Virus record (IMG/VR): IMGVR_UViG_3300032268_001605
Location: 64,001 to 128,000 of that record
DNA length: 64,000 nt
Reading direction: 5' to 3' (one strand)
Source: a virus
Shown here piece by piece: positions 61,879 through 63,999 of this stretch. The notes under the pieces are model-generated. The model searched no databases and was not told where the DNA came from. It saw only the letters and a list, made by a program, of their open reading frames with translations. Each line of letters opens with the position of its first letter. The stretch's first letter is position 1. The translations under genes and the position numbers were made by a program.

Positions 61879-62055
61879 TTAAAAATCCTTTCTATATTTC
61901 AAAACTGCCATTTCTTTGGCTTTTGCCTCCACTTCCGTATCAAATTCTAAACCGAAAGTCTCAATCTTTTCATAGATATAATCAGCATGAGCAATAGCAA
62001 CAGACTTTTCATCTTCTAACTTTTTAGAAGAACTCATATGTGTAAGTGGTTTTGT
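61879..62055 (-). pseudogene. uvsE: Displaced original C-terminus of uvsE
   Basis: TKPLTHMSSSKKLEDEKSVAIAHADYIYEKIETFGLEFDTEVEAKAKEMAVLKYRKDF*. About 27/58 identical to the current UvsE C-terminus; begins immediately after the HEG stop. Confidence 0.92.
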
Positions 62056-63078
62056 TCATATCTCTTTAATATTTCCATCAGAATAAATTATAAAAAAATT
62101 GAATCTGATATTCCTATCAATTACAGATTGTTTCTTTTTTAAGTTATTATCTAAGTCTAATTCATATGTGAAGTCACTTTTGACTTCAATGATTCTATTC
62201 TCAGATTCTATGTAAATATCAGGAAAATAACGATGATCTTTCAAATCATCACCTTTGTAAATAAATTTACCAATTAATTTCTCTATGTCGGAATTTTTAG
62301 TGAAGATATCAGATTCTTTGTAATTGATTAATAAATAATCCAATGCCATTGGTTCATACCCCTGTAATGATATAATTTTTCCACTCGGAAGACTATACAT
62401 TTTATGTGAGAATGATTTTTTCAAATTTTCTTCTAAAAAGTCTGCATCCTTACTTAAGTGTGTGACACCATATTTTTCTAAACATGTTTTCTTATATTTT
62501 TCTGAAATGGATTTCTTTTCATTTTCTGTTTTAGACAGAGATTTCATCAATTTTTTTGATTTTACTGATTCCAACTTTGATATATTATGTACACCATATT
62601 TCTTTGTCACTGATTCTTGTATTTTTAATTTACCCTCTGTGGTTTTTAAGTGATGTTCAACTCCGTATTTCTGAATATTTGTATTTTTCGACTTTAGCTT
62701 CACTTTTTCTGATTTTTGAGGATTATCAACACCATACTTTTTCATACAAGTTTCTTTAGATCGAAGACTTCTCAATTTTAATTTATCCTCAGAAACATTA
62801 TTCCAGAAATCTTTAGACTGACAGCTGTTTGAACAATATTTTACATAACCTTTATTGAAATTAATATAACGTACATTTTTATTACAACAATGACATTTGA
62901 TTTCTGAATAAATTTTATTACTGAAATGGTACATTATTTGTGAAATTTTCTTTCCTTCAAGGAAGGGAAATTTATTAATAATTAAGCCAAGTATACCATT
63001 AGTTTTGATTTTCTTCCAAATTCTAATAAAATTTTCATTAGTAAATAACTCATTTTCAATCAACAATATATCTTCCAT
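62056..63078 (-). CDS. Free-standing homing endonuclease (Zn-finger, KYG repeats, PD-(D/E)XK-like C-terminus)
   Basis: CHCC...YCSNSC, 4x KYGV repeats, LQGYEP, YFPDIYI...IIEVKS. Confidence 0.85.
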   Translation of the reverse strand: MEDILLIENELFTNENFIRIWKKIKTNGILGLIINKFPFLEGKKISQIMYHFSNKIYSEIKCHCCNKNVRYINFNKGYVKYCSNSCQSKDFWNNVSEDKLKLRSLRSKETCMKKYGVDNPQKSEKVKLKSKNTNIQKYGVEHHLKTTEGKLKIQESVTKKYGVHNISKLESVKSKKLMKSLSKTENEKKSISEKYKKTCLEKYGVTHLSKDADFLEENLKKSFSHKMYSLPSGKIISLQGYEPMALDYLLINYKESDIFTKNSDIEKLIGKFIYKGDDLKDHRYFPDIYIESENRIIEVKSDFTYELDLDNNLKKKQSVIDRNIRFNFFIIYSDGNIKEI

Positions 63079-63126
63079 TTATTTTTGAAATAATTTTATC
63101 CAATACGATTGGTATTCCTATATATA

Positions 63127-63999
63127 TTATTTCATGAAATCGGAAATATATTTTTTTAGTGCTATATCCTTCATTTTACACTCCATTTCGATATCCAATG
63201 AATTGTCATAGTCATTAAATTTCTCGTAGAGAAAATCGGAGTGTGCTTCAGATTTAGCAGATATATCCTCAAATTCTTTTCTTGAACTTGAATGATGACA
63301 CAGTGGTTTTGTTTTCCAGGTTGAAATTGCTAAATTAAGTGCATCTTTTTCAGAGTAACCACCTGAATTTAATTTATGGTGAAAGCTATCGAAAACAATA
63401 GGGATGTTTATTTTCGTGTGAACCCAATCATACAACATCTTCACAGAATATTGATTTGGACTATCATCATTTTCAACAGTCAATCGTTTTTTACAAGAAT
63501 CAGATAATAACTCAAAGTTCTGACAGAATTTTTGACAAGCTTCTTCTCTACCGGGTTTGGTTGTACCAATGTGTATGTTTACAGGATAGAAAGTAGACTG
63601 CTCTAAACCCATCAAGTCTAAAATTTGAGAGTGCTTATCTAATTCATCAATAGCATTCAAAACTACCCTTTCGTTCTCACTAGCTAATATACAAAAATGA
63701 GATGGGTGAAATGAAAGCCTAAATCCATTATCCATGGCAAATTTGCCAGATTTTCTGAGTTTAGACTCTATTAGTTTTATGTTAGGTAAGTCTTCTATTT
63801 TATAAAAACCAAGACAAGGAAACATATCACTTGACATCCTGTAGACTGAAATATCATTCTTCAGGTTCCATTCGAGAATTTTTTGAAGATCGTCAAGATT
63901 CTTCAGTGTTAGTTCAGAGACATAATCTAAACCTTTAGATTCAAATGTTTTTTTCGTCATACCTCGATTTACGGAGATATAGTCTTTCTTTTTTAGACC
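63127..63999 (-). CDS. uvsE: UV-damage endonuclease UvsE (5' end outside window)
   Basis: YRMSSDMFP, RLSFHP, NIHIG, LTVENDD, PIVFDSFHH, AHSD, DIEMECK. The frame stays open to the window edge. Confidence 0.95.
   Translation of the reverse strand, partial: GLKKKDYISVNRGMTKKTFESKGLDYVSELTLKNLDDLQKILEWNLKNDISVYRMSSDMFPCLGFYKIEDLPNIKLIESKLRKSGKFAMDNGFRLSFHPSHFCILASENERVVLNAIDELDKHSQILDLMGLEQSTFYPVNIHIGTTKPGREEACQKFCQNFELLSDSCKKRLTVENDDSPNQYSVKMLYDWVHTKINIPIVFDSFHHKLNSGGYSEKDALNLAISTWKTKPLCHHSSSRKEFEDISAKSEAHSDFLYEKFNDYDNSLDIEMECKMKDIALKKYISDFMK

Follow-up and report, generated by a model that had tools for sequence, protein, structure and literature searches.

How does a gene for an ultraviolet (UV) damage endonuclease come to be complete, with a stop codon of its own, and yet to be followed, beyond a second nuclease gene, by another copy of its C-terminus? 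This arrangement lies on the minus strand at one end of a 64,000-nucleotide stretch of viral DNA (the window), which corresponds to bases 64001-128000 of the 139-kb IMG/VR record IMGVR_UViG_3300032268_001605 (the whole record is designated G000). Specifically, the uvdE gene is followed by a 48-nt spacer, by a 340-aa gene of the DUF7487 family that resembles a homing endonuclease gene (HEG), and by a second UvdE C-terminus, which starts at the base right after the HEG stop codon. The initial annotation, in which the gene was named uvsE, read this locus as an HEG cassette that supplies a replacement 3' end and strands the original one, and the anatomy it described was confirmed at 61879-63312. 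On the basis of the data presented below, we consider it probable that the end of a 'B-type' uvdE gene was copied, together with the spacer and the HEG, into a resident 'A-type' uvdE gene, whose native end was thereby stranded. The features are collected in Table 1.

Table 1. Features of the uvdE locus and of further gene-end duplications (positions are those of the window unless a locus is named).
Feature	Position	Strand	Basis or remark
Working chimeric uvdE (UV damage endonuclease)	63127..64000	(-)	PF03851 E 6.6e-52; start 64044, 44 nt past window end
uvdE codons 1-141, native A-type	63622..64000	(-)	informative sites; sister to 14-locus A clade
uvdE codons 142-200, mixed zone holding the upstream recombination boundary	63445..63621	(-)	informative sites; sliding-identity crossover
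uvdE codons 201-244, foreign B-type, 5' of the duplicated segment, co-conversion-like	63313..63444	(-)	informative sites and tree
Replacement 3' end, codons 245-305 and stop, B-type	63127..63312	(-)	78.7% identity to L002; clade with L002
11-mer ACAAAACCACT opening the replacement end	63302..63312	(-)	
Spacer, uvdE stop to HEG start, 48 nt, part of the imported unit	63079..63126	(-)	alignable in L002 and L053
Free-standing homing-endonuclease-like gene, 340 aa	62056..63078	(-)	PF24308 DUF7487 E 1.4e-43; stop TGA
Stranded original uvdE 3' end, 58 codons and TAA (61881-61879)	61879..62055	(-)	in the HEG's frame; no start codon at its beginning
11-mer ACAAAACCACT opening the stranded end, touching the HEG stop codon	62045..62055	(-)	
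Terminator-like hairpin	61827..61861	not assigned	16-pair stem, then T run; between stranded end and convergent gene 61400-61840
thyA end duplication	L064 3048-4547; L081 3096-4592		stranded N-terminal fragment, DUF7487 gene, complete thyA
ATP-dependent DNA ligase duplication	L106 2025-4915 (and L117; loci 97.5% identical)		two complete OB-domain C-termini, 55% identical
polB-like duplication	L096 1856-4321 (and L107; loci 99.7% identical)		39-codon stranded start before oppositely oriented DUF7487 gene
Thymidylate-kinase-like P-loop gene (AAA_28)	8257-8820		stranded 46-aa N-terminus 6480-6620

Read in the whole record, the working uvdE open reading frame (ORF) encodes 305 aa, and its C-terminus runs ...TKPLCHHSSSRKEFED...KKYISDFMK up to its own stop. 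The product belongs to the UvdE family, as judged by a PF03851 match over residues 10-245, by a phrog_8420 (UvdE-type) match reaching position 305 of the 309 of this profile, and by an alignment with the solved UVDE structure 3tc3 over residues 12-271. The second C-terminus is free of stops over its whole length and 46% identical to the working one (27/59, E 3e-16), in agreement with the roughly 45% reported at first, and it aligns to the same part of the phrog_8420 profile as the working end (positions 249-305). The conserved His, His-x-Asp and Glu-x-Lys positions, C-terminal blocks which we take to be metal ligands, are retained in it. Both copies open with the 11-mer ACAAAACCACT, which had already been noticed as the mark of the junction and which has three matches in the window against 0.06 expected. 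Since it codes for TKPL in both copies, homology of the two ends, and not a target-site duplication, may account for the identity.

The locus was compared with 22 IMG/VR relatives (L002-L023) and with LR756502 (L001), to which L053 and L085 were later added. Fourteen HEG-free loci (L003-L014, L016 and L017) are referred to as A-type, and the B-type lineage is represented by L002 and L053. In L001-L023, neither a second C-terminal copy nor a DUF7487 gene beside uvdE was found. The 5' part of the window gene (216 residues) is 62-65% identical to the A-type loci, 60.6% to L002 and 56% to L001, and the stranded end is 57-72% identical to the A-type loci, 46% to L002 and 69% to L001. For the working end, the corresponding values are 41-51%, 78.7% and 45%, the next best relative being L015 at 54%.

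Maximum-likelihood trees were built separately for the 5' part and for the 3' ends. In the tree of codons 1-141 the window is sister to the A clade (support 94/93), with L001 and L002 standing apart (100/99), and in the 3' tree the stranded copy falls within the A clade (99/99) and the working copy groups with L002 (91/82). When the analysis was rerun with L053 and L085 included, support was 98/97 for the position of the stranded copy, 95/90 for the working copy with L002 and 81/70 for the 5' part with the A clade; the enlarged 5' tree also contains a B clade made up of L053, L001 and L002 (91/92). The stranded copy therefore groups with HEG-free relatives, alongside the 5' part, as the initial annotation had predicted. 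Gene order gives a similar indication: like the window, six of the 14 A-type loci have a NusG-like gene a few kb 3' of uvdE, a gene that is absent there in L002, and three of these six loci also share with the window a 133-aa gene (g133) and an exonuclease gene. Because both the trees and the downstream gene order point to A-type ancestry, we conclude that the fragment behind the HEG is the native end of the gene in its native place. The hairpin found between this fragment and the convergent gene is likely to be the original uvdE terminator.

Two homologous copies in the same orientation, as are found here, would also result if the uvdE 3' end had been duplicated locally in tandem, its copies had diverged in place and the HEG had inserted between them later. 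However, an approximately unbiased (AU) test rejected a clade formed by the two window copies (log-likelihood difference 39.7, p 0.002), and the working end is 79% identical to L002 against 46% to the copy next to it. Moreover, the foreign sequence runs on 5' of the duplicated segment, and the spacer is common to L002 and L053, so that we regard this origin as extremely improbable.

The extent of the foreign sequence was mapped through informative sites, defined as those where L002 departs from a state shared by at least 8 of 11 A-type sequences. Codons 1-141 contain 28 A-type, 4 B-type and 10 sites of neither type (n=42), and codons 142-197 contain 5, 7 and 3, respectively (n=15). In codons 201-305 a single A-type site was counted against 27 of B-type and 9 of neither, and no A-type informative site occurs from codon 201 to codon 258. 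Sliding identity to the two types crosses over inside the mixed zone, and in a tree of codons 198-244 the window pairs with L002 (82/83; 79% identity). The enzyme is therefore chimeric, as previously proposed, its three pieces differing in ancestry according to both sites and trees. The foreign part, however, is not confined to the last 61 codons, as had been supposed: donor-type sequence starts at least 44, and perhaps about 100, codons 5' of the duplication start at codon 245. This upstream tract looks like the result of co-conversion during break repair, for which the HEG would be the cause. A reciprocal mosaic uvdE, with a B-like 5' part, an A-like 3' end and no HEG, was observed in L001 (2917-3828), the switch lying near the same region of the gene.

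The duplication breakpoint maps directly before the conserved His-x-Ser-Ser block. At this boundary the A-type DNA is nearly invariant across loci, synonymous positions included (codons for Pro-Met-Thr-His-Met-Ser-Ser-Pro-Lys-Thr-Leu-Glu-Asp), whereas the B-type DNA differs from it at many positions. A comparison by eye of the HEG 3' end with the A-type uvdE codons revealed no convincing microhomology at the right junction.

The spacer provides a link between the imported gene end and the HEG. Among the 20 loci whose 3' flanks were compared, the window, L002 and L053 are the only ones in which it could be aligned 3' of the uvdE stop; it is missing from all 14 A-type loci and from L001, and a degenerate pattern of it, run over IMG/VR, matched only the L002 and L053 contigs. 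A DUF7487 profile scan of IMG/VR returned 77 loci, two of which (L053 and L052) are close to the HEG of the window. In L053, uvdE is followed by the alignable spacer, by a full-length HEG homologue (53% identical) and then by an unrelated gene, with no stranded copy. L052 belongs to the L002 contig, at a distance of about 13 kb from the uvdE gene of L002, and carries a 5'-truncated HEG that is 71% identical to that of the window; in this case, the L002 uvdE gene is followed by the spacer and the HEG is displaced. The first codons of the ORF behind the L002 spacer are similar to the HEG start, which is suggestive only. Because the distribution of the spacer is limited to the window, L002 and L053, we conclude that the B-type uvdE end, the spacer and the HEG constitute a single unit, which was acquired in one piece. 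A hairpin in the spacer was discarded as a significant structure, being no better than in shuffled sequences (z -1.14).

According to the initial annotation, a current end matching HEG-free relatives would have spoken against an HEG-borne replacement. The working end groups with L002, which has no HEG at the site and yet keeps the spacer; we do not count L002 among such relatives, because it has retained this HEG-associated spacer and a truncated HEG is present elsewhere on its contig. A stretch of about 38 nt behind the L002 spacer (L002 4893-4932) recurs directly 5' of the truncated HEG (L052 2205-2243), which suggests that a rearrangement took the HEG away from the L002 uvdE site.

The nuclease gene itself matches PHROGs annotated as 'homing endonuclease' (phrog_3339, E 7e-21, and also phrog_12131). 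The gene is intact, and its product has a cluster of Cys residues in the N-terminal part, KYGV repeats and, in the C-terminal part, a PD...EVK motif; 22 clusters of about 340 aa in the protein database, all of them DUF7487, are 50-73% identical to it over the full length. The residues P286-D287...E298-V-K300 are invariant in 23/23 aligned sequences. A fold search with the AlphaFold model (mean predicted local distance difference test score, pLDDT, 81.8) gave weak matches, all of them to the PD-(D/E)xK-type influenza PA endonuclease (best E 1.6e-3, template modelling (TM) score about 0.2-0.3). The protein is thus probably a PD-(D/E)xK nuclease, a fold suggested by its motif. The distribution of the gene is sporadic: of 25 uvdE loci (the window, L001-L023 and L053), the window and L053 alone have a DUF7487 gene immediately 3' of uvdE. 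A distant DUF7487 gene was found 2 kb from uvdE in L085.

The record is a metagenome assembly with an estimated completeness of about 20% and a G+C content of 29.8%. Since contigs of 281-385 kb and an uncultured phage of 642 kb are among its relatives, it represents a fragment of a very large phage genome. Samples of the same kinds contain related strains side by side, and an assembly chimera of two such strains could in principle simulate the locus. However, independent contigs bridge both junctions with 0-2 differences, one of them from another study. Specifically, the junction between the HEG stop and the stranded end is spanned by a Logan contig of run X2 (61964-62147, two differences) and by one of run X4, which belongs to the other study (62016-62166, one difference); a second X2 contig (62915-63484, one difference) runs across the HEG start, the spacer and the working end and past position 63312. 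In addition, the exact HEG protein is on record from five contigs, the longest of 346 kb. The junctions are real, and an assembly origin is barely conceivable. Near-identical pieces were present in runs X3 and X4, both labelled lake water. An X5 contig departs from the reference at 62056, and a joint of 61986 to 63623 in X3, present in one contig (side 35, likeness threshold 85), is probably that of a relative.

The good state of preservation of the stranded end raises the possibility that it is still in use, either through splicing (group I intron or intein), through read-through of the HEG TGA, or as a separate product of 52 aa that would start at the ATG at 62037. No stop interrupts the fragment, which shares the frame of the HEG; its His, His-x-Asp and Glu-x-Lys positions are kept, and it departs from the A clade at 4/35 A-invariant positions compared to 13/96 in the working 5' part (Fisher p 1.0). 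The lack of excess decay implies that the insertion took place recently when compared with the split from the relatives sampled, or that the fragment is under some constraint; a recent insertion explains it equally well. On the other hand, nothing is missing from the working gene, which ends in a stop of its own, and the reading frames of uvdE, the HEG and the stranded end are set apart by stop codons, which is the arrangement of neither an intron nor an intein. An intron is further disfavoured because no Rfam family matches the region 61400-64000 at E <= 1. The record uses the standard code, and all three stop codons terminate its genes (TAA 117, TAG 22 and TGA 22, for 162 ORFs, one of which runs off the end; 94% coding). 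Continued use of the fragment is, all considered, very unlikely.

The end replacement that we favour can be described as follows. In a B-type lineage of large freshwater phages (L053, L002), the DUF7487 HEG would normally reside just 3' of uvdE. During a mixed infection, the nuclease is predicted to cut the A-type uvdE near codon 245, the B-type gene being resistant, and a unit composed of the last ~100-160 donor uvdE codons, the 48-nt spacer and the HEG would be copied into the uvdE of the A-type phage. At the left end, repair from the B-type donor would proceed through the homologous uvdE sequence, converting 44-100 codons 5' of the break and yielding an in-frame, complete A/B chimeric enzyme, and synthesis would continue through the donor gene end, the spacer and the HEG. 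At the right end, because there is no homology beyond the HEG, the recipient's 3' end (codon 245 on) would be joined straight behind the HEG stop, and this old end would now lie unused ahead of the original terminator. Alternatively, an A-type fragment may already have been present in the donor and have served as a right homology arm; a single case is compatible with either course.

Similar end duplications were searched for around other DUF7487 genes. A flank-similarity test on the 77 DUF7487 loci, 74 of which were testable, was carried out with the other 230-600-aa ORFs of the same loci as control, both strands being allowed. Flank duplications were scored for 9/74 DUF7487 genes versus 17/175 other ORFs. 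Three of the control matches are coordinate (slicing) artefacts, and the remainder includes at least one GIY-YIG/NUMOD HEG (L076). As this crude test gives no usable contrast, no enrichment is claimed, and recurrence is based on the anatomy of individual cases. Weak flank matches in L065 and in L091/L092 were treated as chance.

The clearest anatomy is that of two thyA loci. In both, an N-terminal fragment of 48-51 codons (Pfam positions 1-45) is located upstream of a DUF7487 gene, whose stop overlaps the start of the complete thyA. Between L064 and L081, the HEGs are 74% identical and the new first 50 codons 86%, compared to 51% for ThyA residues 51-130 and 56% for the stranded fragments; similarity at the DNA level is essentially that of the HEG and the adjoining ~265 nt. 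This is a co-conversion-like pattern, as in uvdE. The L064 ThyA (590 aa) contains a large internal insertion.

In the ligase case, a 255-aa DUF7487 gene and a 110-aa ORF without family stand between the two C-termini. The polB-like gene of L096, which begins MKYCKIDP... and contains YGDTDS, is broken, as in L107, just before a conserved block that we take to be polymerase motif B. A further case is found in the window itself, at the thymidylate-kinase-like P-loop gene. Its two N-terminal copies are 77% identical over 39 aa (E 9e-20), the stranded one starts 3 nt past the stop of the upstream glycosyltransferase gene, and between them lie an oppositely oriented 317-aa nuclease gene (7294-8247) and a 75-aa ORF (6995-7222). 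This nuclease is of a different family (phrog_559, E 3.5e-64; phrog_9084, 'homing endonuclease'). In L129 and L130 both neighbour genes are present without the insert, and their N-terminus is 69% identical to the current copy and 57.5% to the stranded one, a comparison with two near-identical relatives only, by which the polarity is not decided. In all, the layout was seen at five targets (uvdE, thyA, DNA ligase, the polB-like gene and the thymidylate-kinase-like P-loop gene) and with two unrelated nuclease families. Elsewhere, family-less ORFs flanked by 114-190-aa duplications of about 74% identity occur in L068/L070 (~359-1135) and in L072 (~1327-2361), and may be further insertions of the same style.

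These cases bear on the question of whether the HEG was the agent of the exchange or a mere passenger beside the donor uvdE, carried along by ordinary recombination in a co-infection and an illegitimate crossover. Some observations weigh against an active role of the HEG, or against the end replacement as such. The mosaic of L001 occurs without an HEG, so that some of the uvdE mosaic could predate the HEG or be independent of it; cleavage by the HEG is predicted only; and the crude flank-duplication rate is similar for non-HEG ORFs. The fold search yielded zero matches at E <= 0.001, and a PDB sequence search with the HEG returned no meaningful relative. Support for the 5' part in the A clade is only moderate in the enlarged tree, and among the Logan contigs no HEG-less allele of the same phage (63313 joined to 62055) was found. 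In addition, a stranded uvdE end was seen in one genome only, and spread of the whole cassette at uvdE is thus no more than a supposition. On the other hand, the duplication boundary exactly abuts the HEG stop codon, the layout is repeated around DUF7487 genes in thyA, ligase and the polB-like gene, each broken at a conserved motif, and the DNA similarity of the thyA pair is essentially limited to the HEG and the adjoining gene end. We therefore consider the passenger role unlikely and retain end replacement associated with the HEG as the probable explanation.

To our knowledge, phage HEGs have been thought to enter genes only within an intron or intein, or by splitting the gene. Entry with a replacement gene end carried by the cassette itself would represent a third route. 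The individual cases give signs of the recurrence of end replacement in phages. We propose, tentatively and as a possibility that falls short of being probable, that it is a general intron- and intein-free way for phage HEGs to enter conserved coding sequence, with the stranded end acting as a second homology arm; if this were true, the cassette could home into any allele, whatever stands downstream. End replacement would make chimeric yet intact enzymes, shift pieces of core DNA-metabolism genes between phage lineages, and leave stranded ends as a datable 'fossil' record of the recipient's original allele. A concrete substrate could be predicted for the uncharacterised DUF7487 family, namely the codons of the conserved His-x-Ser-Ser block in A-type uvdE. 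In annotation, short gene ends that lack an ORF and lie beside nuclease genes would have to be regarded as stranded ends and not as noise.

The nearest precedents are mitochondrial, as the initial annotation had pointed out. Passages of PMC3630166 describe mobile ORFs with C-terminal duplication in fungal mitochondria, namely in Allomyces macrogynus atp6, in atp6, atp9, cox2 and nad3 of Glomus sp., in Rhizopus oryzae atp9 and in Mortierella verticillata cox2. According to these passages, the fungal elements share with the uvdE locus a foreign C-terminus in frame, an endonuclease ORF and the native C-terminus downstream, and also the grouping of the native copy with element-free close relatives and of the inserted copy elsewhere (PMC3630166). 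The phage uvdE case is suggested to work like the mitochondrial elements, with a different nuclease family and host. In contrast to them, the host is here a large double-stranded DNA phage and not an organelle, and the nuclease, with its PD...EVK motif, is a DUF7487 protein and not a member of the LAGLIDADG or GIY-YIG families. Furthermore, in the phage the donor tract visibly extends 5' of the duplication, and the donor-type layout without a stranded copy can be seen (L053).

Among phage systems, the intronless homing of the T4 seg and mob genes is similar in that the HEG lies beside, and not inside, its target gene, as outlined in parts of PMC2790892, PMC2330249 and PMC2988022, and in its spread by break repair with flanking co-conversion and its sporadic distribution among relatives (passages of PMC2988022). 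In the same passages, T4-type insertions into genes are described only as splitting them, the examples being mobE in Aeh1 nrdA, mobA in T4 gene 60 and seg in gene 43 (PMC2988022). Unlike these split genes, uvdE stays in one piece because the replacement end comes along. The word stem 'duplicat' is absent from the T4 review (PMC2988022). In ICP1 phages, nuclease genes stand at the edges of recombinant tracts between related phages, as is the case here, whereas the passages of PMC10448857 on 'duplication' concern HEG-internal repeats and not duplicated host-gene ends. A full-text literature search, with subscription journals and supplements outside its scope, yielded no description, in a phage, of a gene whose end was replaced and whose original end was left stranded; in the full-text search, no paper was found for 'DUF7487'.

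Scans with the single HEG protein recovered relatives of only 24-36% identity, at 5 loci in IMG/VR and 15 in metagenome contigs, and a scan of genome contigs gave one irrelevant fragment. Thirteen of the 20 loci had usable flanks, and flank similarity appeared in L044 alone, where it was ruled out as an end duplication, as it is due to tandem HEG paralogues. Three DUF7487 paralogues are arranged in tandem at this locus (L044 1559-6164), the last one being fused to a longer C-terminal region.

The record contains other DUF7487-like genes, of 246 to about 600 aa, at 4470-5210 and ~9730-11379 of the window and at G000 43691-45475 and 49984-51576. A self-comparison of the record revealed no flanking host-gene duplication at these genes, some of which are rich in KYGV-type repeats. 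Finally, tandem protein repeats of about 46 aa (138 nt) form a long array in one ORF at G000 102400-104200 (window ~38400-40200).

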